Below, piece after piece: positions 2,175-63,049 of a stretch of DNA of 64,000 nt. The position numbers and the translations under genes are program-made. Position 1 is the first letter of the stretch. Each line of letters opens with the position of its first letter. The notes under the pieces are model-generated. The model saw nothing but the letters and a program-made list of their open reading frames with translations. It did no database searches and was not told where the DNA came from. Source of the stretch: Acidobacteriota bacterium (GTDB lineage: Bacteria; Acidobacteriota; Blastocatellia; RBC074); contig JBBIWA010000010.1 of the NCBI GenBank assembly GCA_037439425.1, forward strand, positions 41,590 through 105,589, in the 5' to 3' direction.

Positions 2175-2215
2175 CCTGGGTACGCACGCTTCCAGCGTGC
2201 CTTCCTGGGAGCGCA
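2175..2215. repeat. Partial REP-family copy (family A)
   Basis: CCTGGGTACGCACGCTTCCAGCGTGC followed by CCTGGGAGCGCA. Confidence 0.75.
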
Positions 2216-2245
2216 GGCCATTAGTTGCTACACCAGTTTCTTGCC

Positions 2246-2384
2246 AATTTTTCGGCCGGTGGAGCCGGCGGCCAGAGTGTAGCAGGGCCGCACGATCCGC
2301 TTAGCTTTGAGTGCAAAATTTTTCAGCCGGTGGAGCCGGCGGCCAAGAGTTTAGCTTGGGGTGAGGCGGAGCCGCAGCCCCAGG
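2246..2384. repeat. ~38-bp direct repeat pair plus hairpin (family B)
   Basis: AATTTTTCRGCCGGTGGAGCCGGCGGCCA(A)GAGTKTAGC at 2246 and 2317, then the imperfect palindrome CTTGGGGTGAGGCGGAGCCGCAGCCCCAGG. Confidence 0.7.
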
Positions 2385-2431
2385 CTTTATTCTCCCTTCG
2401 CGGATTGAAAGATGTGTAGAAGCTAATGGCC

Positions 2432-2520
2432 TACGCTTCCAGCGTACTTGTTTTTATCGAAGCAGTGACTGTCCTTAAAAGAGTCGCTTGGGTAATTCCA
2501 GCACGCAGGATGCGTGCGTA
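2432..2520. repeat. Degenerate REP doublet (family A)
   Basis: TACGCTTCCAGCGTA ... GCACGCAGGATGCGTGCGTA. Confidence 0.6.
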
Positions 2521-2570
2521 GTGCTACGGTGCTTCCTGCACAGAGCTTTCAAGGAGCTTTTATCCACATA

Positions 2571-2732
2571 GGGTGCGTCGTCTTTTAAGACGACAGGCTC
2601 ACATGAAAAATCAGTAACGGCAAGCGACGTGCGAGCATCGCTTTGTGAGCAGCGCTTGGGGGAGACCCGCTCGTTACTACTCGCTGCTACTGACTCGGCG
2701 CGACCCGCTGTCGTTCTAAAAGAGCTGCACCC
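2571..2732. mobile_element. MITE-like element with imperfect ~25-bp terminal inverted repeats
   Basis: GGGTGCGTCGTCTTTTAAGACGACAG (2571-2596) versus reverse complement of 2708-2732, GGGTGCAGCTCTTTTAGAACGACAG; internal inverted pair TCAGTAACGGCAAGCGA / TCGCTGCTACTGA; no clear target-site duplication. Confidence 0.55.
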
Positions 2733-2773
2733 ATCTCAATATGAGTATCTTCGCATTTCTGCTTAGCAGCCAA

Positions 2774-3784
2774 CTACCTTGGGGTAACAGTCTGTGTGAT
2801 GTCTGCGAGTGCTACTGGAGCGCCTTGACGCGCTTTGCTCAGATCGGCAGCTTCCATAAAAGCCATGATCTCCAGCGTCTCTTCCGGCGCCACCGGCGGC
2901 ACCCCGGTTTGGAAGAACTTGATGATCTCTACCATCAGGCCGCGGTAATCAGTCTTCATCGGCGGATTCGAGGCGATCACGGATTTGCTGCCAAAGACGA
3001 CTGCGCCATACGGCGTGGCGCCCTGGCGGATGCCGCGCACCGTGCCTGTGCGGCCGTCTTTCCAGCGGCCCACGACAACATCGGCCCCTTTGGTATGAAC
3101 GCGTGTGACGGTTTCGCAGCCCGGCCCCATTAGTGTGTAGAGCATCTCCACCGCGTGAATACCGTACCAGAACAGGTCTGGATGATGCGGTTCGGTGGGC
3201 GCAGGGCCGTAAGTGAAAGCGCCGAGAATCTCACCGAGCTTGACATTATGCTTCATCGCTTGAATTTCAGCAACGAAGCGCAGGCTGGAGGTGCTGAAAA
3301 ACGGGGTGCGAGACTCACGCGCCAGGCGGACGATCTCGTAAGCTTCGCGATAGCTGCTGGCAAAAGGTTTGTCAATGAAGACTCGTTTCCTGGCCGCAAG
3401 GACCGGGCGCACTTGTGGAAGATGGGCGCGCCCATCCACGCTCGTCAAGATCACAGCATCCACCTTCTGGCACAGCTCTTCAATCGAGCTGACCAGTTCT
3501 ACGCCCCATTTGTCGCGCAGCTCTGCCGTGAAGCCTTCAATTCTGCTCGCGCTCGCTTCCACATCTGCGCTGCCGCCTTTGAAAGCAGCGACGACACGGC
3601 CACCGGGCACGTGGTCGGGCCTTAAGGGATCATTGAGCAATTGTGTGAACTGAATGACGTGCGAAGTATCCAGCCCGATCAAGCCGATCTTAAGCGGCGT
3701 CAGCTTCGTCTCGCTCTGCGAAGGCAAGCCGGTGACCGGAAGCAGGATGATTGAGCAGAACATCAATCGGGCGATTGTGCGCAT
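2774..3784 (-). CDS. Gfo/Idh/MocA family oxidoreductase with predicted signal peptide
   Basis: [10 protein letters not shown] Rossmann start, FIDKP motif, WYGIHAVE; hydrophobic N-terminus. Confidence 0.85.
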
Positions 3785-3876
3785 ACTTCCCCCCCACGGT
3801 TATCAGAGAATTGGGGTTTAAAGGTGCGGAAAGAGCCCTGGCACCTGCTGGCAATACTGTTCCTACTCTTGGCCGA

Positions 3877-3959
3877 CCTAGGTAGGTGCGTCTCGTGCGC
3901 TCACTTCTTCGGAGCCAGCTCGTTGAAGGAAGCAAGCGCGCATCTCGCGCGCACCAGGG
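3877..3959. repeat. Highly degenerate REP doublet (family A)
   Basis: CCTAGGTAGGTGCGTCTCGTGCGC ... GCGCGCATCTCGCGCGCACCAGGG. Confidence 0.4.
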
Positions 3960-4003
3960 AAAAGCATCTTCTTGAATGCTATAGCAGGGGCGTTAGGTAA
4001 TAC

Positions 4004-4405
4004 CTAATCTCGTCTATCAGGGCTATCTCTCTTTCTGCCCTTTGTCTTTGCGTAGCGAGCCATCACCCACCCGTAGATTCCTAGATTGACCACCAGAACA
4101 AACAGCCCGAGGCTGATTTGCCAGCCGCGCGTCAGCAGCTCGGGATAAAGCAACGGAATAATATAATGCTCAATGAAGCTTTCGCCATAGCCCGCGGCCC
4201 CGCTTCTTCGACGTAGCCAATTCTCCAACGGCGTCAGCGGGCAGACCCAGCCGGCGAATTCGATCAGCATCGCCCATAACACAGCTGGTAGATGAAACCA
4301 CACGCAACGTTTCCATCTGAGCACCAGCAGCCCGCCAAAAACTACGAAGAGAATGAAAGCGAAATGAACGACCACGACCAGATCGGCGAAGATGCGGTAA
4401 AGCAT
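4004..4405 (-). CDS. DUF2784 family membrane protein
   Basis: ADLVVVVHFAFILFVVFGG, HLPAVLW, CPLTPLENWLR, FIEHYI signature. Confidence 0.88.
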   Translation of the reverse strand: MLYRIFADLVVVVHFAFILFVVFGGLLVLRWKRCVWFHLPAVLWAMLIEFAGWVCPLTPLENWLRRRSGAAGYGESFIEHYIIPLLYPELLTRGWQISLGLFVLVVNLGIYGWVMARYAKTKGRKRDSPDRRD

Positions 4406-4406
4406 G

Positions 4407-5585
4407 TCAGGCCGTCCGGGAATGGGCTTTAAGCAGGTCCATGGCTTTATCAGCCAGCTTGATCAAATGCTGATGCGCGCGATGCCCATTGGTCAAAATT
4501 GCGAAGCCGAGCTTTTGAGTGCGATTGCCGAGCAGAAAGGCGGTATATCCCGGTACGCTGCCACTGTGGGCAAAGTAGCGATCGCCATTGCGCTCAGCCA
4601 CCCACCAAGTCAACCCGAAACCGGCTTCTTCGTTGCCCCACAGCCCTTCTACCGGGCCTTTGAATTTATCGTACTGGCGCGTGAACATCTGCTCCAGGGT
4701 CTGCTCGCTGATGATCCTTCTCCCTTTGAAGAGGCCGCCATTCAGGTTCGCGATCAACCAGTTGGCCTGATTCAGCACCGTTCCGTAGACAATTCCTGCA
4801 GGCCAAACGCTGGCTTTGAGCCGCACCGCCGGCGTGAGCCGCCCGGTCTTTTCATCTGGCACGTAGGGGATGGCTAAGCGCTCTTCCATATCTGGCCGAG
4901 GCATAAAGTCGGTGCTTTCCATCTCCAGCGGCTGGAAAATGTGTTGGTGAATGTACTGCTTGTAAGGCACGCCAGAGATCTGCTGCACGAGATAACCGAT
5001 CAGCGCGTAGGCCATATTTGAGTAGACGACTTTTTGCAGCGGCGGGGTGCTGACTTTGAGCGAGCGCTTCAAATATTCTTCCAGCAACGGTGGGGCCGTC
5101 TCGCCCCAGACCGGATGCGGCCCGAAATCAGGTGGAAGGCCCGAAGTATGCGTCAGCAGATGCCGGAACGTGACAGGTTGCTTCGGGTCTTCGTTTTGAA
5201 TCTTGAAATCGGTGAGATAGTCATTGACCCGATCATCGAGTTTGAATTTGCCCTGTTCCATCAGTTGCAGCAAAGCGACACTTGACATGGTCTTGAAGGT
5301 CGAGCCGATCAGGTAGACTGTGCTGGGAGTGGCTGGAGTGCGCGCCCAAAGATTTGATTCGCCGTAGGCTGCTGTCCAGATGATGCTATCTCCGGCTACC
5401 AGGGCAATCGTGGCCGAAGGGATCTTGCCTTCGATCATGGTGCGTCTGATCTCTGGCTCAAGCTCTGCCACGACCCGATCGATTTCAATCTTTCCAACAG
5501 CGGTGGTCCTGACCCCTGGCAAGATCAGGCCGGCGATCAGAACTATTATGAATGTTTTGCAGCGCAACAGATTTGAAAGTCTCAT
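4407..5585 (-). CDS. Secreted serine hydrolase, beta-lactamase/AmpC family
   Basis: SxxK (STFK), LLTHTSG, YSN and HSG motifs; signal peptide. Confidence 0.9.
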   Translation of the reverse strand: MRLSNLLRCKTFIIVLIAGLILPGVRTTAVGKIEIDRVVAELEPEIRRTMIEGKIPSATIALVAGDSIIWTAAYGESNLWARTPATPSTVYLIGSTFKTMSSVALLQLMEQGKFKLDDRVNDYLTDFKIQNEDPKQPVTFRHLLTHTSGLPPDFGPHPVWGETAPPLLEEYLKRSLKVSTPPLQKVVYSNMAYALIGYLVQQISGVPYKQYIHQHIFQPLEMESTDFMPRPDMEERLAIPYVPDEKTGRLTPAVRLKASVWPAGIVYGTVLNQANWLIANLNGGLFKGRRIISEQTLEQMFTRQYDKFKGPVEGLWGNEEAGFGLTWWVAERNGDRYFAHSGSVPGYTAFLLGNRTQKLGFAILTNGHRAHQHLIKLADKAMDLLKAHSRTA

Positions 5586-5595
5586 CCTCGTTTTC

Positions 5596-6100
5596 TCCTC
5601 CTCAGAAAAACCCTAGGCAGGCACGCATCCTTGCGTGCCTGTCCTCGTTAAGCCAGCCATTACCGCAGAGAAAGCACGCTGGAAGCGTGCGCTCGTGAGG
5701 GTTTCATCATCTCTCCCGCGTCGTCCGTGACGACATCAACGGCTCCTGCGGAAAAACCCTGGGAGCGCACGCATCCTTGCGTGCTCATTGGGGCTGAAGA
5801 TCTTGCACGCTAGATCAGCGTGCGCTCGTGAGGGTTTGATCGTCTCTCCCGCGTCGCAGCGCGAGCTGAATGACTCCTAGGAAAAACCCTGGGAGCGCAC
5901 GCATCCTTGCGTGCTTATTTCCATCAAGCGAGTCGTCATCTTCAGACTAAGCACGCTAGAAGCGTGCGTACCCAGGCTTAGAAAGTCCCTAGGAGCGCAC
6001 GCCGCTGGCGTGCTCGTCTGGTTAAGAGTGAAAATCCTGCACGCTAGATCAGCGTGCCTACCCAGGTTCTTATCGTTTCTCTCGCGTCGCCCAAGCGACA
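5596..6100. repeat. Tandem array of four REP doublets (family A, REPIN/BIME-like)
   Basis: Units start at 5611, 5757, 5887, 5987: CCCTGGGAGCGCACGCATCCTTGCGTGC-spacer-GCACGCTRGAAGCGTGCGCTC, joined by a linker with a GTCGTCCGTGACGAC hairpin. Confidence 0.92.
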
Positions 6101-6155
6101 CAGCGCACTTTGTCGCAGGGCGTCGTCGCACGAGCTGCAGAACTCCTTTGCAGAG

Positions 6156-6923
6156 TCAACGGGAATGCTCTGCAGCAAGTCCAAACCATAGGAGATAGTT
6201 CTGCTCGCCGGGCAGTTCGCACTCGGCCAGCAACTGGAACCCGGCACGCCGGGCTTCGGAGATGACGAACTCCCTGGCGACCATATGCTCGTCAGTGGAT
6301 GCGGGAGGCTGCTGGGCCTGAGCTGGCTTCTGGGCCAGCAGCCAGCGCGCTTGTTCCCGTAATTTCGGGCTATCCTGGTCAATGATGGCCAGACGAGCGC
6401 CAGGCTTCAACGCCAGACGCACACGACGCAGCAGCGCCACAGGCGAGGCAATTTCGTGGTAAGTCTTCAGGATCATTGCAACATCGACAGCAGCCGGGGG
6501 AAGTTTGGGATCGTTTTCTTCACTGAGAATCGTGCGCACGTTAAATACTTTCTCCCGGGCAGCTCGCTTACGGATGTAAGCGAGCATGCGCGGCTCAATG
6601 TCTACTGCATAAACCAGGCCTTCGGCTCCCACTCGACGCGCGGCGTGAAAGGTGAAATAGCCACTGCCAGCGCCAATGTCAGCCACTACCTTGCCTGGCC
6701 CAATTCCTAACACCTCCATCGTTTGCTCAATCAGCAGCTCACGATCGCGCTGCGGATTGTCAAAGCTGGCCGGATCGCCTCGATATGGCTTGGCTACTGG
6801 CCGCCAGATGCGATCAAGCTCATCTATTGACTGGCTTGGTCGGGGCCGGACCTCACAGCCACTGCTCATCAACAGAGCGAGCCACACTCCCAAGATCCAT
6901 TTTCGAGAGACCTGACCTGTCAT
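6156..6923 (-). CDS. Class I SAM-dependent methyltransferase, possible lipoprotein
   Basis: VADIGAGSGYF, VYAVDI, YHEI; LLMSSGC lipobox-like; ATG at 6923 is inferred. Confidence 0.85.
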   Translation of the reverse strand: MTGQVSRKWILGVWLALLMSSGCEVRPRPSQSIDELDRIWRPVAKPYRGDPASFDNPQRDRELLIEQTMEVLGIGPGKVVADIGAGSGYFTFHAARRVGAEGLVYAVDIEPRMLAYIRKRAAREKVFNVRTILSEENDPKLPPAAVDVAMILKTYHEIASPVALLRRVRLALKPGARLAIIDQDSPKLREQARWLLAQKPAQAQQPPASTDEHMVAREFVISEARRAGFQLLAECELPGEQNYLLWFGLAAEHSR

Positions 6924-7066
6924 GAAAGTGGCGCGTAACCTCCCGCTCGCTTCAACTTCCCTGAAATGATGGATTTTTATCACCTGATCAGTTATGTTTT
7001 CATTGTAATCTTTATCTTGAGTCAAGAATGCTTTGATATTAACTGCTCAACCTAAAAGGAGAGAGA

Positions 7067-7417
7067 ATGGCAGAGCCCGATTGCCTCTTTTGCAAGATTG
7101 TCACCGGAGAGGTTCCCTCCACCAAGGTCTACGAGGATGAGAAAGCAGTGGCCTTCAGAGACATCAATCCTCAAGCTCCTGTCCATGTGCTCATTGTCCC
7201 CCGCGAACATATTGAATCGCTCAACGACGCTGGTCAAGGCGATGAGCTGTTGATCGGCCACCTGCTGCGCCTGGCACCTAAAATCGCCAATCAACTCGGC
7301 GTGGCTGAAGAAGGGTTCAGGACCGTCATCAATACGGGCGCCGAAAGTGGCCAGAGTGTATGGCACCTGCATCTCCACGTGCTTGGGGGACGGCGCATGG
7401 CCTGGCCACCGGGCTAG
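7067..7417 (+). CDS. hinT: Histidine triad nucleotide-binding protein
   Basis: CLFCKI N-terminus, DINPQAPVH, HLHLHVLGG triad; SD AGGAG upstream. Confidence 0.95.
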   Translation: MAEPDCLFCKIVTGEVPSTKVYEDEKAVAFRDINPQAPVHVLIVPREHIESLNDAGQGDELLIGHLLRLAPKIANQLGVAEEGFRTVINTGAESGQSVWHLHLHVLGGRRMAWPPG

Positions 7418-7537
7418 GCTGACTCGCTGCGGCCGGTGACCCAGATGACTATCACTGCTGCCGATGGCCAGTAAGGCCAGGTAGGCTTTTTTTGCCTCTT
7501 CTTGAAGAAAGAGTTCAGAGGCGACCAATTTATAAAC

Positions 7538-8287
7538 TCACAGTCTCTTTGTGGCACTAAGAAGCGAAGCCGAGTGACGGTCCAAAAACAGCGTGGTCGC
7601 CGGATGCCGCCGCAGAATTGAAGCCGGGTACTGAGGGCTGATCTCTAATTCAAGGCAGTTGCGTACGGCTTGAGCTTTGCGTCCATCTGGCACCACACAG
7701 ATGATGTGACGAGACCGGAGAATCTGTTGGATAGACATGGAGATGGCAGTACGCGGGACTTCTTCCAAACTGCTGAACCATCCTTCGCCCAACTGCTGCC
7801 GGCGGCAGGCTTCATCAAGCTGTACGACAAGGTAAGGCTCTTCGGTCTCGAAATCGGCTGGCGGATCGTTGAAAGCCAGATGGCCGTTTTCGCCAATCCC
7901 CACAAAAGCAGTGTCAATCGTGCAACGCGAGATCAGCTCGCCCAGCCTTCGACATTCAGCTACCGGGTCTGCGGCTTCACCATTGACGAAATGAAACGTA
8001 CCCGGATGGAGGCGATCAACGATCCGCTCTTTCAGGTAGCGCCTGAAACTTGCCGGATGCGACTGAGAGAGCCCGACATATTCGTCCAGATGAAAGAAAG
8101 TCGTGCGAGACCAATCGAGCTCCGGGGCTTGCGTCAGCGCTTCGAGGAATTCAAACTGCGAGGCTCCCGTCGCCGCGATCACATATGCCTGCCCACGTTC
8201 GGCAATCGCCTGACGTATGATCTCAGCCGCTTGACGAGCGGCGGCCTGAGCTAGCTCCTGTTTTGAACTGAAAATTTGAATCTCCAT
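7538..8287 (-). CDS. nagB: Glucosamine-6-phosphate deaminase family protein
   Basis: [37 protein letters not shown]. Confidence 0.88.
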
Positions 8288-8292
8288 GTGCT

Positions 8293-9192
8293 CTAAATGC
8301 CAATCACGTTCTTCAGATACTGCCGGCTGCGCAAGGCGCTCTCAAAAGGCTTGACGCCCGGCTGAGTGACATCCACGTCCTGCTCGACGATGGCCCATCC
8401 GTCATAACCACACTCACTGAGCCCTTGAATGATCTGAGGAAAATCCACGGCGCCTTCGCCTAGCTCGCAGAAGACACCGCGCCGCACCGCCTCGAGGAAG
8501 TCAACACTTTCCCGGCGAACTGTTTCAAGTACTGCTGGATTGACATCTTTCAAATGCAGATGCCGAATGCGCGCGCCGTACTTGCGCACCGCTTCGACGG
8601 GGTTGCCGCCACCATAAAAATAGTGGCCCGTGTCAAGACACAGTCCAATCAGTTCCGGGTCCGTGCTTGCGCACAAACGTGCGATCTCCTGCGGCGTTTC
8701 GATCAACGTGCCAGCGTGGTGATGAAACGTTGTGGCCAGCCCTAGCTCGCGCGCGGCCTGCGCGATGCGCGTGAGGAGCTTCACTGCGCCCTCCCATTGC
8801 TCGTCATTCATTCCATCGCGCGCTTCATTAACGCGCCCGGCTATGCTCATGCGCGCCTGGCTCATCTCATCAGCCAGGACAATCAGCTGTGCGCCCGTTT
8901 CAGCCAATACTCTGGCCAGCGTCATCGCTTGGTCGAACCCCGCTGCGTGGCGTTCCGGCCGCGCCAACGGAAGGGGGACGAAAGCTGAGACCAGCTGCAG
9001 ACCACGCTTTGACAACTCTTCGGTGATCCGCTTCGGCTCTTTCGGAAGGTAACCATGAGGGCCGAGCTCGGTGCCGCTGTAGCCGGCCTGTCTCATCTCG
9101 TCGAGGACTTCGCCATAGGGCTGCTGCTGGCCCCAGCCTTCTACCTCCATAATTCCCCAACTGACCGGAGCCGTTCCGATCCTGATACTCAT
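8293..9192 (-). CDS. iolE: Myo-inosose-2 dehydratase (IolE/MocC-type TIM barrel)
   Basis: [42 protein letters not shown]; iol context; SD GGAGG before ATG 9192. Confidence 0.75.
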
Positions 9193-9272
9193 TTCCACCT
9201 CCGCACATGGTAGTCAGTAGGAGGAGCGCCTTTCTTTACTGATTACTGGCTACCGACTACTGACTACTAGTA

Positions 9273-10220
9273 TTACTTCAAATACTCATCTGCGTTCTCT
9301 TTGGTCACCAGCGTCGTGCCGGTATCAATCCGTTTTTCGATCTTCTGGCCGCTGAGCACCTTGATCGCCGATTCAACTGCCAGCTTGCCCATCTGGGCCG
9401 GATGCTGAGCAACAACCGCGTCCATCTGTCCGGCTTTGACCGCGCGAACGGCTTCTTGCCCGGCGTCAAATCCGATGAGTTTGACTTTGCCGGTGAGCTT
9501 GCGCGCCGCAATCGCTTCCATTGCGCCGAGCGCCATTTGATCGCTGGTAGCAAAGACGGCGTCCAGGTCAGGATAGGTGGTCAACAAATTCTCCATCACC
9601 GACATCGCTTTGGCTCGCTCGCTGTCAGCCGGTTGAATAGCCAGTAATTGCATGCCCGGCGCGTCCGAGATCGCTTCCTGAAATCCGGCAACACGATCAG
9701 CGTGAGCAATCACACCTGAAATGCCTCGGATCACCGCGACCTTGCCTTTGCCATTAAGCAGCTTGACCAGAAACTCGCCAGCCAGCCTTCCGCCTAATTG
9801 GTTGTCGGTCCCGATGTAGGTCAACTTATCCGGCCAAGGCGCGTCGGTATCTACCAGCAGCACCGGAATGCCGGACCTTCTGGCCTTGCTGAGCACCGGC
9901 ACTACTTCGGCAGCGCCGGCCGGGGCAACTGCGATGGCTGAGACCTTCTTCAAAACCTGGTCTTCGAGGATCGAGACCTGCTGGTCAATGTTGATCTCGC
10001 GTTCGGGAGCCAGCACTGAGAGCTCGACCTCAGGATGCGCGGCCGCAGCTTCTTCCGCCCCTTTCTTCAGCGTCAGCCAGAATTCGCTGTCCAGCGCTTT
10101 CGTCACTACGACAATGTGCTTCTTCCTACCTGGTTCCGTGCCGCTACTGCAACCAGTAGCCAACAGCAGCCAAACCACAGCTAGAGTTACCACTCCCCAC
10201 CTTATGATTAGTCCTTTCAT
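9273..10220 (-). CDS. Sugar ABC transporter substrate-binding lipoprotein (RbsB-like)
   Basis: LATGC lipobox, IGTDN, GFDA, VAQHP. Confidence 0.9.
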   Translation of the reverse strand: MKGLIIRWGVVTLAVVWLLLATGCSSGTEPGRKKHIVVVTKALDSEFWLTLKKGAEEAAAAHPEVELSVLAPEREINIDQQVSILEDQVLKKVSAIAVAPAGAAEVVPVLSKARRSGIPVLLVDTDAPWPDKLTYIGTDNQLGGRLAGEFLVKLLNGKGKVAVIRGISGVIAHADRVAGFQEAISDAPGMQLLAIQPADSERAKAMSVMENLLTTYPDLDAVFATSDQMALGAMEAIAARKLTGKVKLIGFDAGQEAVRAVKAGQMDAVVAQHPAQMGKLAVESAIKVLSGQKIEKRIDTGTTLVTKENADEYLK

Positions 10221-10277
10221 GGTTCATTCTCCTGGATCAAGGATGAGCGTCAAGATGACTGAATCACTCATCAAGCC

Positions 10278-11312: not shown

Positions 11313-11315
11313 TGA

Positions 11316-12830: not shown

Positions 12831-12850
12831 AGTCGGCGCTATGTGTAACG

Positions 12851-12952
12851 CCCGGGAGCGCGCGCTGCCTGCTCGCCTCAGGCCTGCTGCGCAATTAATT
12901 CTCCCCAGGTCTTTCTGGCGAGAAAAGCACGCTAGAAGCGTGCGCTCCCAGG
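12851..12952. repeat. REP doublet (family A) overlapping the 3' end of the upstream CDS
   Basis: CCCGGGAGCGCGCGCTGCC ... GCACGCTAGAAGCGTGCGCTCCCAGG. Confidence 0.8.
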
Positions 12953-13927
12953 AATTAAAGAGACTCGTTCACCACTGCGAGCCGCAGCGTAGCAAGCCTC
13001 CACCAGTTCCACCGCTTTATAGCCATCAAACGCAGTTACCGGCGCAGGCTGGCCGTTCACAATGGCGTCAATAAAGGCCCGGTCTTCTTGCGCGTAGCCC
13101 CAACGCCATTGCTTCTCCATCTGCTCGAACGACTCCACAGTCGCCTCTGTCTCCAAGCCGATAGTGAAGCAAAGCCGCTCCATCTCTGCGGTTTCGATCG
13201 TCGCGTGATGGCAGAAGACTTCGATCCGCTCGAATGGGAAATGCCAGGTCGCATCGGCCGAAGTGGCAAGCGTCGCGTGCAGGCCGTTCTGAAACCGCAG
13301 TAGCATCGAGAAGTCATCTCTCTCAGAATATTCGTGTGAGGAAGCATGCACCATCACGCTTTCGACCTCGCCGAACAGCCAGCGCAGCAGATCGAGCATA
13401 TGGATCGGAGTCTCGTAAAGATAACCGCCAGTGATCGCTGGATCGCCAACCCAGGCAGGAATCAGCAACTCCCCGCGATTCATCTTGGCATGCGCTGAAT
13501 GAGGCGCCATTCCTTCTCGTCTGATCAACTCTTTCACTCTTTGATAGACTGGTGCGAAGCGGCGATTGTGGCCGACTTGAAAAACTCCGCGACTCCCTTG
13601 GCTGGCAGCTAAAACTTGCCTGGCTTCTGCGAGCGTCGTGGCCAGCGGCTTTTCGCAGAAGACGTGACGCTCGGCCGCCAGCGCTTTGAGCGTCACTTCA
13701 ACATGTTTCGTGTTCGGTGTGGTGATGTAGACAGCATTCACCGCTTCGATGAGTGCCTCCTCGCTCTCTTTGACTTCAGCGCCGTGCTCTCTGGCAATGG
13801 CCTGTGCGCGGTCAGGCACGAGATCATAAATCGCAGCCACACGCACCCGCTCATCGCGCTGAAGCAATCTCGCGTGCAAGCTGCCCATATGGCCGGCGCC
13901 AATAATTCCAATATTCAAACTCTCCAT
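12932..13927 (-). CDS. Gfo/Idh/MocA oxidoreductase (inositol dehydrogenase-like)
   Basis: GIIGAGHMG, CEKP, VGHNRRF. Confidence 0.9.
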   Translation of the reverse strand: MESLNIGIIGAGHMGSLHARLLQRDERVRVAAIYDLVPDRAQAIAREHGAEVKESEEALIEAVNAVYITTPNTKHVEVTLKALAAERHVFCEKPLATTLAEARQVLAASQGSRGVFQVGHNRRFAPVYQRVKELIRREGMAPHSAHAKMNRGELLIPAWVGDPAITGGYLYETPIHMLDLLRWLFGEVESVMVHASSHEYSERDDFSMLLRFQNGLHATLATSADATWHFPFERIEVFCHHATIETAEMERLCFTIGLETEATVESFEQMEKQWRWGYAQEDRAFIDAIVNGQPAPVTAFDGYKAVELVEACYAAARSGERVSLIPGSARF

Positions 13928-16580: not shown

Positions 16581-16830
16581 CTATAGTTTCGGTAGCTGCG
16601 TTAGGGGCACACCATTCTGCCTTTGATGCGGCTTCACCTCGCGGATCACGACTTGCCCGGCTCTATCCTGCCCTCATCTTTCTCCTGACCAGGTATCTGC
16701 GCGGCGCCGATGGCTCAGGCGGATGATGGCCTCTGCCTTCAATCCAGCCTCGGCCTGCGAGCTCCCTTCGAGGTGGGCTGCAAGCCAACAGGCGCGCGAG
16801 TCTCTTTTCGAGACCCTGCCGTGCGAAAGG

Positions 16831-17017
16831 GATTTCCCGAGAAATCTTTCATGCCGTCTTCGACGACACCTTGAGATGATGAAAAGCTCACGAGCGCCTG
16901 CTTGCGCGCTGCGCGCAGGCAAGCACGCTGACCTAGTGCGCTCGGTCTTCGGTAATGGCTTGCTTAACGAAGACCGGCACGCAAAGATGCGTGCGCTCCC
17001 AGGGATTTTCCGCAGGA
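16831..17017. repeat. Family A element in reverse orientation with a nested palindrome
   Basis: Linker, class I spacer and GCACGCAAAGATGCGTGCGCTCCCAGGGATTTTCCGCAGGA; extra GCCTGCTTGCGCGCTGCGCGCAGGC segment. Confidence 0.85.
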
Positions 17018-20105: not shown

Positions 20106-20194
20106 CCTGGGTAGGTGCGCCTCCGGGCGTGCCTGGTTTCAATTAGCGCGCCGTGTTCGGAAGCTGAAGCACGCTAGATGCGTGCCTACCCAGG
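20106..20194. repeat. REP doublet (family A)
   Basis: CCTGGGTAGGTGCGCCTCCGGGCGTGC ... GCACGCTAGATGCGTGCCTACCCAGG. Confidence 0.8.
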
Positions 20195-20367
20195 GAAGTC
20201 TTACTTTTCATCGCACCCAATCGCCACTTTTCACTCCCTTTGGCGATGAGGGCCGGTGTAAAGAGACTATTGAATGGCGCCGTGATCTGGCCAAGGCTGG
20301 CTACGCCACTGCTGACACTACCTGCCTCCCCTTTAAGCCACATATCGGAGGGAGAGATCAAAACTCA

Positions 20368-23915: not shown

Positions 23916-23979
23916 GAAGGTAATAATTCATTCACCCCGAAGAGACGAAGAAGACAAAGTAATTCTCCTTCACCCCCTC

Positions 23980-24066
23980 CCTGGGAGCGCAGACATCTTG
24001 CCTGCCTGGCTTCGATGAGTAGGTGGCAGCCGGAAGCTCCGGCACGCTTACAAGTGCGCTCCCAGG
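23980..24066. repeat. REP doublet (family A)
   Basis: CCTGGGAGCGCAGACATCTTGCCTGC ... GCACGCTTACAAGTGCGCTCCCAGG. Confidence 0.8.
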
Positions 24067-24142
24067 GGGGCATTGTTGCAGGGCGTTGCCAGCAACCTCA
24101 ACCCCTCTTTACTCTCCTCGTGTCCTTCGTGGTGAAATGTTG

Positions 24143-30956: not shown

Positions 30957-31230
30957 TCCTCCTCCGAAAGAAAATCCCTAGGAGCGGCAGCATCCTTGCG
31001 TGCTCGTTAAGAGTGGAAAGCCCCGCACGTTCGCAAGCGTGCGCTCCCAGGATGTTCATTGCTTTCAGGGTGTTATCAAAGACGACATGCACGACTCCTC
31101 GGAAAATTCCTGGGAGCGGCAGCATCCTTGCGTGCTCGTTGATATTGAAAACCCTGCACGCTGGAAGCGTGCGCTCCCAGGTTCTCACTATCTCTGGGCG
31201 TCGTCGTGATTACATGGACGACCCCTCAGA
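30957..31230. repeat. Two tandem family A units with linkers
   Basis: Units at 30976-31051 and 31109-31181, both with class III spacers. Confidence 0.9.
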
Positions 31231-31415
31231 TATTCATAACTTGAACTCAGCACCAGATAGACCGCTGCTGAGCAGGCACACTACGTCTTCGATGTCAAAG
31301 AGTAAGTCAGCTCCGACTCCTCAACACCGACGCAACATCCCAGCTAGCCCAAAAGGCAGGTGAATCTGATTTCCCGTTTTGTTGTCTTTACAGTGTAATT
31401 CTTCTCGATCCCAGC

Positions 31416-39611: not shown

Positions 39612-39650
39612 CCTGGGGGCGTACAGCACGCTGGAAGCGTGCGCTCCCAG
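39612..39650. repeat. Collapsed family A copy
   Basis: CCTGGGGGCGTACAGCACGCTGGAAGCGTGCGCTCCCAG. Confidence 0.75.
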
Positions 39651-39817
39651 AATAAGCCCACTCGCAAACCGCTCTAAACGTGACAGTAGCCCGTTAGCAA
39701 GAGTTTGACTGCAAGCACTTCCTCCTAGCACGGTGCCTGACTCACATCATTTTTCGAGAGCAAGTTCAGGAGGTCTGCCACCACCTGGCTACTGAAGCCT
39801 GAGAACTGACCTTAAAA

Positions 39818-43750: not shown

Positions 43751-43761
43751 AATTTTGCCTT

Positions 43762-44003
43762 TTGCGGAAAATCCTGGGCAGGCACGCATCCTTGCGTGCT
43801 TGGCTTGGTTAAGCAAGCCATTACCGAAGACCGAGCACGCTCGCAAGCGTGCGTACCTAGGTTTTCATCATTTCTGGGCGTCGTCCGTGACGACATGAAA
43901 GACTCCTCGGAAAATTCTGGGTACGCACGCATCCTTGCGTGCTTGGCTTCGACGAGCGAGCTATCGTCAGAAAGTAGCACGCTCGCAAGCGTGCGCTGCC
44001 AGG
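43762..44003. repeat. Two tandem family A units between the LacI gene and iolB
   Basis: Class I and class II spacers with a full linker containing GTCGTCCGTGACGAC. Confidence 0.92.
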
Positions 44004-44015
44004 CTTTCTCCTCTC

Positions 44016-45023
44016 TCAAGACGCAGGCGCAGCAGTCGACTCTCTGATGATCAATTCGCCATTGACCTTGAGGCTGGTCTTGGTTTGCTCGCCGGAAAAG
44101 AGCTTGAGCAAGATCTGCATCGCCAGGCGTCCCATCTGCCGCATCGGCTGGCGGATGGTGGTCAGTGGCGGATGGGTATAAGAAGCGATGAATAGATCAT
44201 CAAAGCCTACGAGCGAGACCTCCTCAGGCACGCGCAATCGCTGCCTGCGAAGGACGCACAGCGCACCCAGAGCTGACATATCGTTGTAACAAAAGACCGC
44301 CGTGGGTCTTTCAGCCAGCTCAAGCAGCTTCTCCATAGCCTGCGCGCCACCTTCAGCCTTGCCATCGCCGTGCACGATCAGTTCCGGTCTGAAAGGTAGA
44401 TCAGCCAGTTCCAGCGCCTGCCGATAGCCCGTAAACCTCTCGGTGTCGGATTGAAACCCGAACCGATCGCCGAGATAGGCAATCCGCCTGTGACCCAGCT
44501 CGATCAGATGCTCCGTGGCCAGGCGGCCCGCAGCTACGTTGTCTATCATCACTGAGTGCGCAAACTCGCTGGGGTGTTGATTGTTGATGAGCACAATCGG
44601 CACCTGCATTTGCGCTAGTCGCGGCATATAGAGCGCACCGACGCGCGAAGCCAGGACTAAAATTCCATCCACGCGCCGCTCGTGGAAAGAATGCACGACT
44701 TTGATTTCACGCTCCGGATCGGCATTAGAATTGGCCAGCAACACCGAGTAATCGTGATCGTTGGCTACTTCTTCCACACCGCTGACCACCTCAGCGATAA
44801 AAGGGTCAGCAATCGTGGTGACAACGATGCCAATCGTATGCGTCTTGCGCGTGACCAGACTGCGCGCCACGGCGCTGGGACGGTAACCCAGCCGCCGCGC
44901 GATTTGCCGGATCCGGTCTGCCGTCTCGCGGTTGACCAGCGGGCTGCCGCGCAAGGCGCGTGAAACTGTCGCGTGCGAGACATTGGCCGCGCGCGCGATG
45001 TCTTTGATCGATATCTCATTCAT
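44016..45023 (-). CDS. LacI family transcriptional regulator (probable iol repressor)
   Basis: SIKDIARAANVSHATVSRAL HTH, YRPSAVARSL, GFDD, PPLTT. Confidence 0.95.
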   Translation of the reverse strand: MNEISIKDIARAANVSHATVSRALRGSPLVNRETADRIRQIARRLGYRPSAVARSLVTRKTHTIGIVVTTIADPFIAEVVSGVEEVANDHDYSVLLANSNADPEREIKVVHSFHERRVDGILVLASRVGALYMPRLAQMQVPIVLINNQHPSEFAHSVMIDNVAAGRLATEHLIELGHRRIAYLGDRFGFQSDTERFTGYRQALELADLPFRPELIVHGDGKAEGGAQAMEKLLELAERPTAVFCYNDMSALGALCVLRRQRLRVPEEVSLVGFDDLFIASYTHPPLTTIRQPMRQMGRLAMQILLKLFSGEQTKTSLKVNGELIIRESTAAPAS

Positions 45024-47881: not shown

Positions 47882-47958
47882 GAGATGAAAATCAAACTAT
47901 GCAGAGACTTCATGCTTCCTGCGAGAGACGCGATGAAAGGTTTGCAAGTTTGAGCTCT

Positions 47959-48117
47959 GATTTTCCGCAGGAGTCATTCAGCTCGCTTGAGCGACACCCA
48001 GAAACGATGAAAAGCCGGGTACGCACGCTTGCGAGCGTGCTTGGTCTTCGGTAATGGCTTGCTTAACGAAGGCAGGCACGCAAGGATGCGTGCGTACCCA
48101 GGATTTTCCGCAGGAGG
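47959..48117. repeat. Single family A unit bounded by 15-bp direct repeats
   Basis: GATTTTCCGCAGGAG at 47959-47973 and 48102-48116. Confidence 0.92.
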
Positions 48118-52248: not shown

Positions 52249-52375
52249 TCGCTCAGCCTGACTTGCCACTCGTCATCTTTAAAAATCCTCTCTCAGCTGG
52301 TTGGCAAGGTGGACTCAGCAAGGTAAACTTCAAGCGTGAAAGCGGCCGGCGACCTGATTGAAAGGAGCGCAAACG

Positions 52376-53278: not shown

Positions 53279-53283
53279 CTAAA

Positions 53284-54174
53284 ATGAAACAGCATTGGCC
53301 AATCAAGACCTTCGTTCATACTCACAACGCTTTTCTTCTCTGGCTTGCGCTTGCGACGGCGGCATTCCTGCTTCCGGCGACGGCGGCAGAGCGCGGTCAA
53401 TCCTCTGCACCGTCGAGCAAGCCTCTCGTCATTGCGCACCGCGGCGGCGCCCGGGAATCAACCGAAAACACGATCCTGGCTTTTCAGCGTGCTGTGAAGA
53501 TCGGCTCGGACGGCATCGAGACCGATCTTCGTTTGACGCGCGACGGGATGGTAGTGATCTACCACGATGAAAAGTTCGGTCGCGTCGAAGGGCTGCCTAA
53601 AGAGAAGCAGACGCGGTTGATTTCAGAGATGACCTATGCCGAGCTGAGTGCGCAGCCGCTCGCGCCCGTTGGTGAAGACACGGGTGGACGCCGTGTGCCG
53701 ACGCTCAAAGAGTTACTCAGCAGCGTCAATTCCGGGCTGCTCAACATTGAGATCAAACGCGGAGCGCGCTTTGATGAGCTGGTCAATAAGACCATCGAGA
53801 TCCTCAAAGGCTTTCCTGAGTTGGAGCGCGTAGTGCTTGAGCCGCCCGATTTAAAAACGGCGCAGAGACTGCGCGCCGCGCTTGGGGCGCAACTCAAGCT
53901 GCATCTCAATCCCGGCTATGATGAATCGCGCCCCTACCTGGACTCGCTCAAGCGGGTGCTCGCCTTCAAGCCGCACTCGATCTCAGTTTCTTACAAGAAG
54001 CTCTCCTGGGAGATCGTTGATCTGGCGCACAAGGCGGGTGTCGAAGTGTGGGTCTGGACAGTTGATGATCCCGAACTCGCTCAGGCAATGGCACTACTGG
54101 GCGTGGATGCGATCAAGACCGACAGGCCGGCGATGCTGCTTGAGCTGTTTAAGCGCAGTAGCAAACGACCATAG
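53284..54174 (+). CDS. Secreted glycerophosphodiester phosphodiesterase
   Basis: IAHRGG, ENT, IETD, HD, NIEIK, WTVD, TD. Confidence 0.92.
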
Positions 54175-54248
54175 CATCGAGACTGGCCATAGAGCGTGCG
54201 GCGCTGCGAAAGCGCGCTGGGAGCGCCGGTGGAAGGAGCCTTGTAGTC

Positions 54249-55019
54249 ATGAAAGCCGTCTCTGCACTCTTGTTATTGATTGGCTTGCCGCTGTTGGCCT
54301 GGCCCTCGCAGGTGACACGGCAGCCGCGCCTGCCAGGTTATCTCTCGTCTCCGCATTCGGGCGGGGCATCTGAATTCACCTTCGCGCGATTGATCTACCA
54401 TTCGGAATGGCGCAGGACATGGGCCGTGGATTGGCCAAAGGCCGATGAGCAGTTCATCTACGGATTGCGCGGCTGGGCGCGGAGCCTGCTGGCGATCTCC
54501 GATGATCCGGCCGCAGTCTCTTTGTTCGATCCTCAACTCTTCAAATATCCCTTCATCTACGCAGTTGAGCCTGGCTTTATGGGGCTGTCGCAGGGAGAGG
54601 CTGAAAGATTGCGCGAGTACTTATTGCGGGGCGGGCTTCTCATGCTTGATGACTTCTGGGGAGAATGGGAGTGGCAGAATGTGCAAGAGCAGATGCGGAA
54701 GGTCTTCCCCGAATACCGCATTCAGGAGCTTCCACTCACTCATCCGATCTTTCATTGCTATTTCGATATCAATGAGGTGACCCAGGTTCCCGGCATCGGC
54801 TCCTGGTTCTATCGCGGCGTGACGCACGAAAAGGGTGGGTACGTGCCGCACTACATGGGGATTATAGATGAAACAGGCCGGTTGCTGGTCTTTATTGCCC
54901 GCAACACGGATAATGGTGATGCCTGGGAATGGATTGATCATCCTGATTATCCCTTGAAGTATGGGCTGGCAGCTTATCGGCTGGGGATGAACGTAATCGT
55001 CTACGCGATGACTCATTGA
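54249..55019 (+). CDS. DUF4159 domain protein
   Basis: [40 protein letters not shown]. Confidence 0.88.
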
Positions 55020-55447
55020 TGACCTAGGCCCCGCAATTTTAGTCTCTTCTCGACATTGCTTTCTTCAGCTTGCCTCTGAGTTACCTGAGCAGTAATCCAT
55101 CCCCAACGTATTTCTACCGGCCTAAGCACTGGCACCATCTGGGGCATCTGCTGGGACAGCGGTGATACATTCTGTTTCACTCCCGCCCCTTGTAACGGTG
55201 GCTGAGGCTGAGTTGGCGGATGCCAGAATGTTTTTAAAGCTTTGCCAGTTCAAGGGATGGTGGGCTTGCCTGATCAACGCGCAGATGGGGAGCGCTACTT
55301 GCAGTGTTCATTTTGTTACCTCTATTACGCAGGCTGCATTTCTAAACTCATACCAGACAAGCAGTCTGATGTCGGGCAAATTGTTAGTTTGCCAAGCGGC
55401 TCCGTAGCATTGCACAAGAGGGAGGCCCACTGAGAATTGGCCTGACG

Positions 55448-55685
55448 TTTTCCCAGGAGTCTTTCAGGGCGTTACGGACGACGCGGGAAAGACGATGAAA
55501 ACCTGGGTACGCACGCTTCTAGCGTGCAAGCTTTTCACTCTTAACCAGGCGAGCACGCAAGAACGCGTGCCTGCCCAGGATTCGCCCTGGGAGCGCACGT
55601 TTGCGAGCGTGCTGCTTTCTAACAATAGCTCGCTCGTCGAAGCCAAGCACGCAAGGATGCGTGCCTGCCCAGGATTTTCTGAGGA
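55448..55685. repeat. Two tandem family A units
   Basis: Linker, class III unit (55502-55579) and class II unit (55586-55673), ending ATTTTCTGAGGA before ATG 55691. Confidence 0.92.
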
Positions 55686-55690
55686 AAGAG

Positions 55691-56998
55691 ATGAAAAGCC
55701 AGACCAGATCATTCAGACTTTTCATTCTTGCCATCGGCAGTTTGTTGATCGTTATGCATTACTTCTCGACGCGCCGGATCAACGCCTTTAGCGGTGGGCC
55801 ACCAGCTTCGCACACAGGCGCTCCCAATGAGGAGACCTGCGTGGTCTGTCATAGTAGCTTCGCTCTCAATAGTGGTCCCGGGAGGTTGACCCTGTCGGGA
55901 TTGCCAGTTGGTTATTTGCCCAACCAGGAAATAACCGTGACTGTCACTCTCACGCAGGCTGACCGCGTACGCTATGGATTCCAGGCAACTGCGCTGGATG
56001 AGAGCGGCAGACAGGTGGGCAGCTTCATTGTCACTGACAGTGTGCGTACCCAAACCAGCTCTGGAACTGTCAGGGGCAACGCTCGCAGCTACATCAATCA
56101 TACCTCTGACGGCACTTTTCCTTCCGGCCCCAATCAAGGGAGTTGGAGCTTCAAATGGAGAGCCCCAGCAAACAGCGCTGGCAAGGTAACTTTCTACGTG
56201 GCTGGTAACGCGGCCAATGGCAATGGCAACACTTCGGGAGACTACATCTACACCACTCTGGCTTCCATCTTTCCCGCGGTGACCAGTGTCTCCGCTGCGA
56301 GCTTTGCCAGTGAAGCCGCACTGGCTAGCGAGGCGATTGCGGCAGCCTTTGGCACGGTGCTGGCTGCTGCTACTGCCGGGGCCGACACGCTGCCACTTCC
56401 CACGGACCTGGTCGGGACTCAGGTCTTGGTCAAAGACAGCGCTGGGACTGAGCGCCACGCACCTCTCTTCTTCGTCTCGCCGATGCAGGTCAACTATCTG
56501 ATCCCGTCAGGTACGGCTAACGGGCCTGCGACGGTGACGATCAGGAGCGGAGATGGCTCAATCTCAATGGGGACAGTCTTAATCGAGCGCGTCGCACCCG
56601 GTGTGTTTTCAGCCAACGCTAATGGTCAGGGCGTAGCTGCCGCTGTGATACTGCGCGTCAGGGCTGACGGCTCACAGCAGTATGAATCAGTCGCACAGTT
56701 TGATCCAGCCCAAGACCGGTTTGTCTCGGTCCCGATCGATCTTGGGCCGGAAACCGATCAGGTCTTCCTGGTGCTGTTTGGCACGGGCATACGCTTTTTC
56801 AGCTCTCTGGCAGCAATCACGGCGAAGATAGGCGGCCTGGATATGCAGGTGGTGGGCGCAGCAGCGCAGCCTGATTTTGTGGGCCTGGATCAAGTCAATG
56901 TCCGTCTGGGGCGCGATCTGGCCGGGCGTGGCGAGGTAGATGTGAGCCTGACTGTGGATGGCAAGACGGCTAATACCGTCAGGATCAACATTCGATGA
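55691..56998 (+). CDS. Secreted Reeler-like protein with Solibacter-type (TIGR03437-like) C-terminal domain
   Basis: [28 protein letters not shown]; then [34 protein letters not shown]. Confidence 0.8.
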
Positions 56999-61469: not shown

Positions 61470-61537
61470 GAAAATTCCTCCGTAACTAAGGATGGGTTTT
61501 GCCTGAGATGAGTGACAGGAATAGAAAGCAACGATTT

Positions 61538-61750
61538 TTACTTTGCTGGCGCTTCGCCTTTGATTCGTTCTACCAGCTCTTCGGCGTGCTCCATTGCTTC
61601 AAGCATCGCGAGCGTCTCAGGATTGACTGCTTCCATTAGCATCAACTCAGGGTAGTCGAGCACGCAGATGGTGCAGCCGGAACGGCAACAGAGTTGCAAC
61701 AGATGCCGCGCTTTTACGGGCTTGGTTAATTGATTCTGTCTTTGGTTCAT
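61538..61750 (-). CDS. Small Cys-motif protein (CCxSGCxxCV)
   Basis: ATG at 61750 gives 70 aa; CCRSGCTICVLDY resembles the oxidoreductase-like N-terminal metal-binding motif. Confidence 0.55.
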   Translation of the reverse strand: MNQRQNQLTKPVKARHLLQLCCRSGCTICVLDYPELMLMEAVNPETLAMLEAMEHAEELVERIKGEAPAK

Positions 61751-61911
61751 CTCTTCAGTTGCCACCTGGTCTTCCCTCTTCAGTCCGCCACTCCGATGGA
61801 GTTCAAGCAAGAGATTTGCAGGCATAATCTTCACCGCCAAGCTCACGAGGCAGGCGAAGAAATTCCTCCTCGTTCTTCCGTGCTCTTTGTGTCCTTCGTG
61901 GTTTTCACGAA

Positions 61912-62733
61912 CTATTTCCCTTTGAATGACGGCTGGCGTTTCTCGACAAAAGCATTCAGTCCTTCGGTCGCATCTTCGGACTCAAACAACTGTTGTTGTA
62001 GCTCACGTTCGAGCGCTAGGCCAGATTCAAATGGCATCTCCAAACCTGACTGGACTGCGCGTTTGATCTTTCCCACGGCGGCTGCGGCTTTGGCAGGCGG
62101 AGCGAACTGCGTGGCATAGTTCATCACCTGAGCCATAAAGTCTTCGCTCGGAAAGAGGTGATTGATGAGGCCGATCTCTTTCGCCTGCTCGAAGTCAAAG
62201 GTTGCGCCGAGTACCATCATTTCAATCGCACGCGATTTGCCAATGAGCCGCGCCAGCCGCTGCGTCCCGCCAGTGCCAGGCAGCAGGCCGAGATTGATCT
62301 CCGGCAACCCGATCTTGCCTGCGCCTTGGCGGGCAATACGAATGTCAGCGGCCAGCGCGATCTCCAGACCGCCGCCTACCGTGTGGCCATTGAGCGCCGC
62401 GATGACCAGTTTCGGCGTCTGCTCCAGACGGTTGAGCGTCTCATTAGCATGCAGACAAAAGTAGTATTTGAATCGTGGCGTGACCTCAGCCAGCATGTTG
62501 ATGTTGGCTCCGGCGGAAAAGAACTTGTCACCTGCGCCGGTCACTACGATCACGTAAATGTCATCGTCAAAGCGCGCGCGCAAGATCGCTTCGTCCAGCT
62601 CGCGCATCATCTCGTAGGTGTAAGCATTGGCTGGTGGATCATTCAATTCCAGCACAGCAATTCCGCCTTCCGCGCGGTAATTGACGCGCGCGCTGGCGGA
62701 ACCTGACTCGGTCATCAGTTTAGCTTCACTCAT
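61912..62733 (-). CDS. Enoyl-CoA hydratase/isomerase family protein
   Basis: FFSAGAN, GGGLEIAL, GLPEINLGLLPGTGGTQRL; start at 62733 (extension is repeat-derived). Confidence 0.92.
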   Translation of the reverse strand: MSEAKLMTESGSASARVNYRAEGGIAVLELNDPPANAYTYEMMRELDEAILRARFDDDIYVIVVTGAGDKFFSAGANINMLAEVTPRFKYYFCLHANETLNRLEQTPKLVIAALNGHTVGGGLEIALAADIRIARQGAGKIGLPEINLGLLPGTGGTQRLARLIGKSRAIEMMVLGATFDFEQAKEIGLINHLFPSEDFMAQVMNYATQFAPPAKAAAAVGKIKRAVQSGLEMPFESGLALERELQQQLFESEDATEGLNAFVEKRQPSFKGK

Positions 62734-62881
62734 CGGCAGCCATCCTTTCTGTGGCCTGGTTGTTAGTTTGGATGGGAGATATGGAAGAGTCATCTTACAG
62801 CGGTTTTCAGTGGCGTGTCTAGATGAATGGGTTTGACTGACGGCTGATGCCTGAGCTCTGACAACTGGGGTGGGAGAAAAT

Positions 62882-63049
62882 CCTCCTGCGGAAGGTCCCG
62901 GGAGCGCACGCATCCTTGCGTGCTCGGTCTTCGTCAAGCAAGCCATTACCGAAGACCGAGCACGCTCGCAAGCGTGCGCTCGTGAGGTTCTCATCGTTTC
63001 TCTGGGCGTCGTCCGTGACGACCTGAAAGACTTCTCGGAAAATCCCTGA
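62882..63049. repeat. Single family A unit plus linker
   Basis: CTCCTGCGGAAGGTCCCGGGAGCGCACGCATCCTTGCGTGC, class I spacer, linker ending TCGGAAAATCCCTG. Confidence 0.92.

Follow-up and report, generated by a model that had tools for sequence, protein, structure and literature searches.

REPINs placed ahead of ribosome-binding sites in an acidobacterial genome, and the RAYT likely to serve them

How does a dense family of palindromic repeats come to occupy a region that holds no transposase, and what decides where its copies lie? Here we address this question for a 64,000-nucleotide (nt) stretch of an Acidobacteriota genome, called the window below (contig C10, 41590-105589, of genome G000, an assembly of 6.0 Mb in 145 contigs with 56% G+C). 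A reading of its letters alone, the original prediction, had described inverted pairs of repetitive extragenic palindromes (REPs) laid out as REPINs (REP doublets forming hairpins), and had taken them for a non-autonomous family moved by a REP-associated tyrosine transposase (RAYT). We find that the REPIN family is real and of an ordinary kind, with an unusual, testable landing rule: the element is polar, and one of its two arms, arm A, stands in about a third of cases immediately upstream of a host ribosome-binding site. This polarity and placement are new relative to the original prediction.

The density is not an impression of the eye. The window has 12 matches to an 18-nt arm pattern (up to 3 mismatches), where 100 shuffles averaged 0.21 and never exceeded 2, and 12 of the 14 positions first noted there are recovered by an nhmmer profile built from 132 oriented doublets; the other two, 3877 and 39612, are real but weaker, and visible by eye. 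Exact GCACGC-N(3-9)-GCGTGC hairpins occur 26 times in the window and 634 times across the 6.0-Mb genome, and requiring the outer motif CCTGGG-NNN gave 698 units genome-wide and 205 strict inverted doublets. Counted as non-overlapping profile matches, 553 elements occupy 407 loci (293 single, 85 double, 26 triple and 3 quadruple), so the family is not confined to this region. With 18 profile elements the window is the densest 64-kb stretch; over 101 genome windows of that size the mean was 5.9, and the top values, 14-16, all fell on contig C10. Elements are mostly extragenic, with 32% of their bases inside crude open reading frames (ORFs) that cover 84% of the genome. The mixed ages proposed for the copies agree with 210 distinct sequences among 211 strict REPINs and with profile scores running from 20 to 148 bits. 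No described Rfam family was matched: the curated covariance models gave no hit at gathering score across the window and none at E <=1 across 43600-48300.

Each REP unit reads CCTGGG-NNN-GCACGC-loop-GCGTGC, and two units in inverted orientation make a REPIN. Written arm A first, the canonical element runs from CTCCT | GCGGAAAAT through CCTGGG-NNN-GCACGC-ATCCTT-GCGTGC, a spacer of ~35 nt and GCACGC-loop-GCGTGC-NNN-CCCAGG to a tail of ~43 nt ending in GACTCCT (profile positions 1-5 for CTCCT, 6-14 for GCGGAAAAT, 15-104 for the REPIN and 105-147 for the tail with its GACTCCT end). The doublets are asymmetric, with loop ATCCTT marking arm A and TTGCGA, TTCTA or a related loop marking arm B. Hairpin arms, their inversion and a spacer of 20-36 nt had all been described correctly; among the 205 strict doublets the spacer is mostly 34-36 nt (mode 35-36), with a minor class of 20 nt. 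The linker said to hold a GTCGTC-CGT-GACGAC hairpin turns out to be a conserved 3' tail present in ~290 of the 553 copies, element ends falling in the profile either at 105-107 (REPIN alone, ~75 copies) or, with the tail, at 148-161. Its hairpin varies (GTCGTC-CGT-GACGAC and GTCGC-AGC-GCGAC among others), and 82 strictly matched tails fold at a mean of -7.9 kcal/mol versus -5.3 for shuffles. Folded as single-stranded DNA, a full unit pairs arm A with arm B in one long hairpin, next to which the tail makes its own small one (-36.5 kcal/mol, z -4.3); together with the inverted pairs, this upholds the REPIN layout. Among 498 anchored units of G000, 348 stems are consensus, 104 are changed on one side and 5 are compensated, and because stem changes are nearly all one-sided, single copies decay. 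The foot CCTGGG is followed by TAC, AGC, CAG or TAG, and GTAG can be read in the TAG variant only. The class of GTAG-tagged REPs, whose hairpins carry the tetranucleotide GTAG or GT[AG]G at their 5' foot (PMC3733652, PMC6006769), was considered and set aside, the foot here being CCTGGG-NNN. As a separate observation, the start of the tail read in gene sense is often AGGAG-TCGTTT-ATG-TCG..., resembling a ribosome-binding site, a start codon and a very short ORF; a captured gene start is possible.

Which enzyme could serve such elements? A Pfam Y1_Tnp search of the genome found six places, none of them within the window, in keeping with the earlier remark that no transposase was in view; the RAYT lies on contig C15 instead (55143-55766), as a single intact copy encoding 208 amino acids. 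It matches NCBIfam REP_Tyr_transpos (NF047646) at 83.3 bits (cut-off 80) and aligns to E. coli TnpA-REP (PDB 4ER8; E 2.9e-8), HVH falling on HMH and YIENNPV on YIYINPV, and is a class-2 Y1 HUH enzyme. Its motifs NHVH, WQ and YIENNP, the whole basis of this call, fit subclass 2.4 (group 4 of Bertels) as set out in Table 1 of PMC6006769. The closest named relatives in public genomes (60% and 59% identity) are both from metagenome-assembled genomes labelled Blastocatellia bacterium. Elsewhere, contig C107 has an intact IS200-like Y1 gene and C44 a broken one, each bordered by its own repeat family, distinct from the present REPs; C22 has an IS605-like pair, C142 a partial Y1 gene at the contig end and C50 a weak Y1 match (24.7 bits). 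Miniature elements derived from IS200/IS605 (class-1 TnpA, Y---Q) were rejected as a candidate, the class-1-like Y1 genes on C107, C44 and C22 being flanked by other repeats. Beside the present family, a GCCCGC...GCGGGC-type hairpin, with 67 copies when 2 mismatches are allowed, surrounds the intact IS200-like gene (C107:12700-13943), and a GGAGCGACCTGTCTATAG-type repeat (80 copies) surrounds the Y1 gene broken by two stop codons (C44:4200-5100).

The tie between RAYT and repeat is clearest across relatives. We compared 41 genomes, G000 included and none of the others from its genus; 33 of them, again counting G000, have RAYT matches, the best relative being 71% identical. Eight of ten inspected RAYT loci (L011, L012, L013, L015, L016, L017, L019 and L020) have flanking REPs or REPINs with a CC(T/C)GGG foot, L014 has hairpins of the same stem, and L018 has another type. 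The original prediction had suggested looking for a Y1 or RAYT gene flanked by the same arms: the eight relative loci clearly have REPs of this design on their flanks, and the G000 flanks are decayed palindromes with the foot kept. The exact foot-plus-hairpin unit of G000 (GCACGC) is present in 394 copies in its own genome (0 for a reversed-pattern control), 146 in G018, 81 in G006, 28 in G017, 26 in G012 and 0 in G033; 20 of the 41 genomes have none. The family is lineage-specific in sequence. A GCAGGC/GCCTGC stem variant, flanking the RAYTs of G033 and G025, occurs in 156 copies in G033, 21 in G025 and 1 in G000. Each genome's abundant stem variant is the one that flanks its own RAYT, and this covariation across genera supports a non-autonomous REPIN family served by a RAYT. 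Within 21 RAYT-flank REPs from 12 genomes, 3 of the 6 stem pairs are altered on both sides; the figure of 95% paired is circular because units were chosen for perfect stems, and only the variety of stems counts.

The position of the copies relative to genes was scored with a gene-start test: an AGGAG-like motif had to occur within 30 nt, followed after another 3-12 nt by a start codon with an ORF of 80 amino acids or more. Of 438 unique arm-A ends, 151 pass (155 of 444 before removal of duplicates). Random positions pass in 214 cases out of 5000, and in 92 out of 3000 when they are drawn from outside crude ORFs; for the other ends of the element the figures are 4 out of 319 (arm B) and 3 out of 294 (tail). 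By locus, 150 of 407 pass, and 127 of 272 when loci are limited to those with an element scoring 60 bits or more. At 130 of the 438 arm-A ends, the first start codon to open an ORF comes 15-24 nt past CCCAGG, the control being flat at ~1.4% per 5-nt bin. On the opposite strand the arm-A junction reads CCCAGG-ATTTTCCGC-AGGAG-N-ATG, and in solitary elements written arm A first the flank CTCCTGCGGAAAAT very often has CAT 5-10 nt upstream. The element is polar, and the arm that directly precedes host ribosome-binding sites is arm A. The genes behind arm-A ends, named from their N-terminal sequences, presumably include eno, gap, pgk, rplI, acpP and gltX and many with signal peptides.

To whom does the ribosome-binding site belong? 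At iolB (11 relatives of 13 other loci, G002 and a paralogue left out), the G000 junction reads CCGC, then AAAAGG-CAAAATT-ATG, and the element-free genes of G009, G003 and G015 have AAAGGA 7-8 nt ahead of ATG. At eno (23 relatives of 29 loci, G002 and five more distant ones left out), all 23 relatives have an AGGAG-type site and G018 only has a REP, joined as ...CCCAGGGCTTTCCG, then AGGAGAAGGTCATT; eno of G004, from the same genus as G018, reads ...TTACTTA, then AGGAGAAGGTCATT, with no REP. The G018 REP is an independent insertion at the junction used in G000. For gap (23 of 29 loci) and pgk (20 of 29 loci) the relatives have no REP and host-like ribosome-binding sites. Orthologues of these four genes keep the site where the element is lacking; the ribosome-binding site is therefore a host feature, and ...ATTTTC(C/T)G(C) marks the end of the element. 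Copies are likewise not fixed at orthologous positions, the iolB, eno, gap and pgk sites being empty in other genera and the eno site filled in G018 and empty in G004. At the two ends of 176 full units the pentamer CTCCT is exact in 90 and 102 cases, and identical non-consensus pentamers were found in 2 units versus 0.9 expected; because the two end pentamers do not co-vary, a target-site duplication was rejected. Over positions 1000-20999 of the window, for which four sequencing runs were compared, the alignment of contigs of a ~92%-alike relative from another study's run breaks off at the edges of elements or close to them (5599 is one case, 20097 just ahead of element 20106 another), and contig joints in the likely source run of the assembly resemble repeat cross-talk. 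Among metagenome relatives of the gene at 4407-5585 (best 81% protein identity), this REP was absent from the 29 upstream regions viewed, the N-termini being too divergent for placing junctions. Separately, unrelated palindromes, GGTCAGTGG... at L202 (G017 eno), GGGAGTAGGGAGT... at L189 (G004 eno) and GTCCGTAGTCCGT... at L268 (G033 pgk), also stop just before a ribosome-binding site or start codon.

The best explanation, and in our judgement a probable one, is that RAYT-copied REPINs insert next to CTCCT/AGGAG and that the surviving copies are those ahead of ribosome-binding sites. The REPINs, being non-autonomous, would most likely be copied as single-stranded DNA by the one RAYT of G000, and integration would be guided to the pentamer CTCCT, the complement of AGGAG, by short-sequence recognition like that in the target choice of IS200/IS605 transposases. 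Insertions within genes would be lost, leaving survivors before ribosome-binding sites, where even essential genes may tolerate insertion because neither the site nor its distance from the start codon is disturbed. Tandem arrays would be explained because the element's own ...CTCCT end offers a fresh target. A plain sequence target would be enough for the observed share, since ~45% of AGGAG sites outside crude ORFs stand in ribosome-binding position. What the data show are patterns, namely the RAYT association and the junction rule; how DNA would be cut and joined we infer from published work on IS200/IS605 and TnpA-REP. That the integration step reads CTCCT, placing copies precisely against the 5' edge of a ribosome-binding site with the translation signals unharmed, is a tentative proposal to which we give slightly less than an even chance.

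Several observations weigh against this explanation. No transposition event was seen, and nothing points to recent activity because nearly all strict REPINs differ from one another; the flanks of the G000 RAYT are decayed palindromes that retain the CCTGGG...CCCAGG foot. At iolB the host site next to the element is AAAAGG rather than AGGAG, and the eno loci of G018 and G004 (genus g5) are the sole clean filled/empty pair, with none for G000 itself. The ribosome-binding-site habit is strong only in G000 and partial in G018, and is not general for the clade: the pattern of REP end, GGAG and ATG is absent from G006 (81 REPs) and has a single instance in G017 (28 REPs), the habit was not seen at 10 loci inspected in each of these two genomes, and G033 gave a weak 9 of 30. 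Gene calls are crude ORF calls made in this analysis. Arrays may be collapsed and counts are approximate, because the assembly is in 145 contigs and repeat depth in its likely source run is 600-1600 versus ~27 elsewhere.

Selection for function could also produce such placement, if the elements acted as RNA structures, in 5' leaders or between cistrons, that stabilise mRNA or attenuate or terminate transcription, as is shown for some REPs of E. coli, and if they were retained wherever expression profits from them. This reading, which we regard as rather unlikely, draws on the stable fold of the full unit into a long and a small hairpin, on a short T run after both REPIN ends in the consensus, on the 234 of 375 loci with genes on both sides that lie between co-directional genes and on the tolerance of elements by housekeeping genes. 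The excess of one-sided over compensated stem changes, however, speaks of copies that decay and are not kept as structures, orthologous genes in other genera manage without the element, and a fixed AGGAG junction in ~150 unrelated genes is hard to obtain from random insertion plus selection. A scan for promoter and terminator consensus was not decisive, with 5 promoter-like sites versus 5.4 expected across 43000-56500 and a few arm-B hairpins weakly terminator-like. Selection for function can in any case operate alongside targeted insertion.

It is distinctly unlikely that the RAYT has been domesticated for another task and that recombination, gene conversion and replication slippage are what chiefly spreads or maintains the repeats. 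Tandem arrays do exist, with REPINs joined directly at 23-33 nt, identical copies are lacking, and the REPs beside the G000 RAYT are decayed, all as this account would have it; yet 407 dispersed loci are beyond the reach of slippage, RAYT flanks and abundant REP variant co-vary across genera, and G018 acquired its REP independently at the eno junction. Highly improbable is a miniature inverted-repeat transposable element mobilised by a DDE transposase; CCTGGG...CCCAGG would then be its terminal inverted repeats and CTCCT a target duplication of 5 bp. The frequent CTCCT at both ends of full units would suit this, but the end pentamers vary independently, the unit ends beyond the REPIN are not inverted repeats and, in relatives, it is Y1 genes that the repeat flanks.

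Few bacterial repeats are as common as REPINs, and we know of no system in which RAYT target choice and copy completion have been shown or REPIN transposition reconstituted. In the REPs and bacterial interspersed mosaic elements of E. coli, TnpA-REP, a homologue of the G000 RAYT, acts on the hairpin and its 5' foot and reportedly cleaves at CT beside REPs. REPs of E. coli are found mainly downstream of genes and are not known to favour ribosome-binding sites, and their arm types and linkers differ from those described here. The IS200/IS605 members IS608 and ISDra2, and their short derivatives, reportedly have a Y1 HUH enzyme and subterminal hairpins, and are said to insert by a fixed 4-5-nt target without duplication, the element end holding its own cleavage motif. 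We propose that the present REPINs are alike in their Y1 enzyme, hairpins, duplication-free fixed short target and cleavage-motif-like end; unlike IS200/IS605, the enzyme here is class 2 (Y---NP), its gene lies outside the element and the proposed target is CTCCT. As described by Bertels and Rainey (2011; PMC3116915), the REPINs of Pseudomonas fluorescens SBW25 share with ours the inverted REP pair forming a long hairpin, hundreds of extragenic copies, a single RAYT, REPs flanking RAYTs (clearly so in relatives of G000) and lineage-specific sequence variants. The present family differs in RAYT motifs that fit subclass 2.4 (group 4) and not group 3, in a foot of CCTGGG-NNN that is not GTAG-like, in a third hairpin within an asymmetric tail, in having no abundant master sequence and in its polar ribosome-binding-site placement. 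For group 4 RAYTs, Bertels et al. (2017; PMC5581495) report only a weak repeat association; with the present family, a clear REPIN association extends to Acidobacteria and, by motifs, to RAYT subclass 2.4 (group 4). Judged by titles and the starts of abstracts, we found no literature linking REPINs or RAYTs to Shine-Dalgarno or ribosome-binding sites, and supplements may list acidobacterial RAYTs.

If true, the CTCCT rule would be the first target rule for REPIN transposition and a natural case of a mobile element addressed by the translation start signal. The sharp junction ...CTCCT|GCGGAAAAT..., the ~150 occupied ribosome-binding sites (eno, gap and pgk included) and the small enzyme make it testable by biochemical assay. 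It also raises the question of how a hairpin of 90-150 nt right before the ribosome-binding site affects expression of the downstream gene.

Within the window, the elements at 5599, 30967, 43761, 47956 and 55585 abut gene starts ( Table 1 ). At 5599 the arm-A end lies ~25 nt from the ATG (5583-5585) of a beta-lactamase-family gene (4407-5585, -; Pfam), with GAGGAGGAG in between. The longest-ORF starts of 42899-43846 and 48029-49549 run into repeats, and the likely true starts are 43732 (-) and 48122 (+). For annotation, this means that ORF callers extend start codons into REPINs.

Table 1. REP and REPIN elements of the window (positions from its first letter; bit scores are from the nhmmer profile).
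Element	Position	Strand	Evidence
Single REP unit (CCTGGGTAC-GCACGC-TTCCA-GCGTGC), weak profile match	2174..2201	-	20.7 bits; exact hairpin
Degenerate doublet	2433..2519	-	21.8 bits
Degenerate doublet with GCGCGC-type stems, like the decayed REPs flanking the G000 RAYT	3877..3959	.	Read by eye; missed by nhmmer
Array of four, unit 1: REPIN + tail	5599..5751	+	111.2 bits
Array of four, unit 2: REPIN (20-nt spacer) + tail	5743..5884	+	88.8 bits
Array of four, unit 3: tailless REPIN	5876..5979	+	98.6 bits
Array of four, unit 4: REPIN + long tail	5979..6159	+	69.2 bits
Decayed REPIN between two genes of a sugar ABC-transporter/oxidoreductase cluster	12851..12958	+	28.1 bits; Pfam
Full unit (REPIN + tail) between two ABC permease genes; arm-A end away from any gene start	16828..17017	-	103.9 bits
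REPIN upstream of a solute-binding-protein gene; arm-A end to ATG 23 nt	20106..20215	+	48.1 bits
REPIN, partial tail	23978..24105	+	47.2 bits
Pair, unit 1; opposite strand after arm-A end: GGAGGAGG-AATAT-ATG of Oar-like receptor gene 27593-30952 (-)	30967..31105	+	71.7 bits; Pfam OMP_b-brl_4
Pair, unit 2	31097..31236	+	83.2 bits
Single REP	39612..39651	.	Exact hairpin 39626-39642; read by eye
Pair, unit 1; arm-A end adjoins host ribosome-binding site AAAAGG of iolB (42899-43732, -)	43761..43909	+	141.5 bits; orthologue comparison
Pair, unit 2; truncated tail	43905..44018	+	99.3 bits
Full unit; arm-A end then ATTTTCCGC-AGGAG-GAACC-ATG of metallo-beta-lactamase-fold gene starting 48122 (+)	47956..48116	-	148.2 bits; DNA fold -36.5 kcal/mol, z -4.3
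Pair member: REPIN + tail	55443..55583	-	96.1 bits
Pair member; arm-A end then ATTTTCTG-AGGAA-AGAG-ATG of gene starting 55691 (+)	55585..55685	-	95.6 bits
Full unit upstream of an enoyl-CoA hydratase gene	62883..63047	+	125.4 bits; Pfam

The window is rich in sugar-uptake and catabolic operons, which may be related to its high repeat density. By Pfam, 37714-43732 is an inositol catabolism cluster with an IolD-like thiamine pyrophosphate enzyme, a PfkB kinase, a Cgl0159-like protein, IolB and a LacI regulator. Two adjacent Oar-like outer-membrane receptor genes (OMP_b-brl_4 + CarboxypepD_reg) occupy 24143-30952 (-), the REPIN pair at 30967 preceding the second. The ORF at 36630-37397 (-), with Transposase_31 (YhgA-like) and DUF4351 domains, is unrelated to the REP family. 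Finally, a local direct repeat of ~70 nt with hairpin GCCGGTGGAGCCGGCGGCC lies at 2255-2345 and has three genome copies, two of them here.

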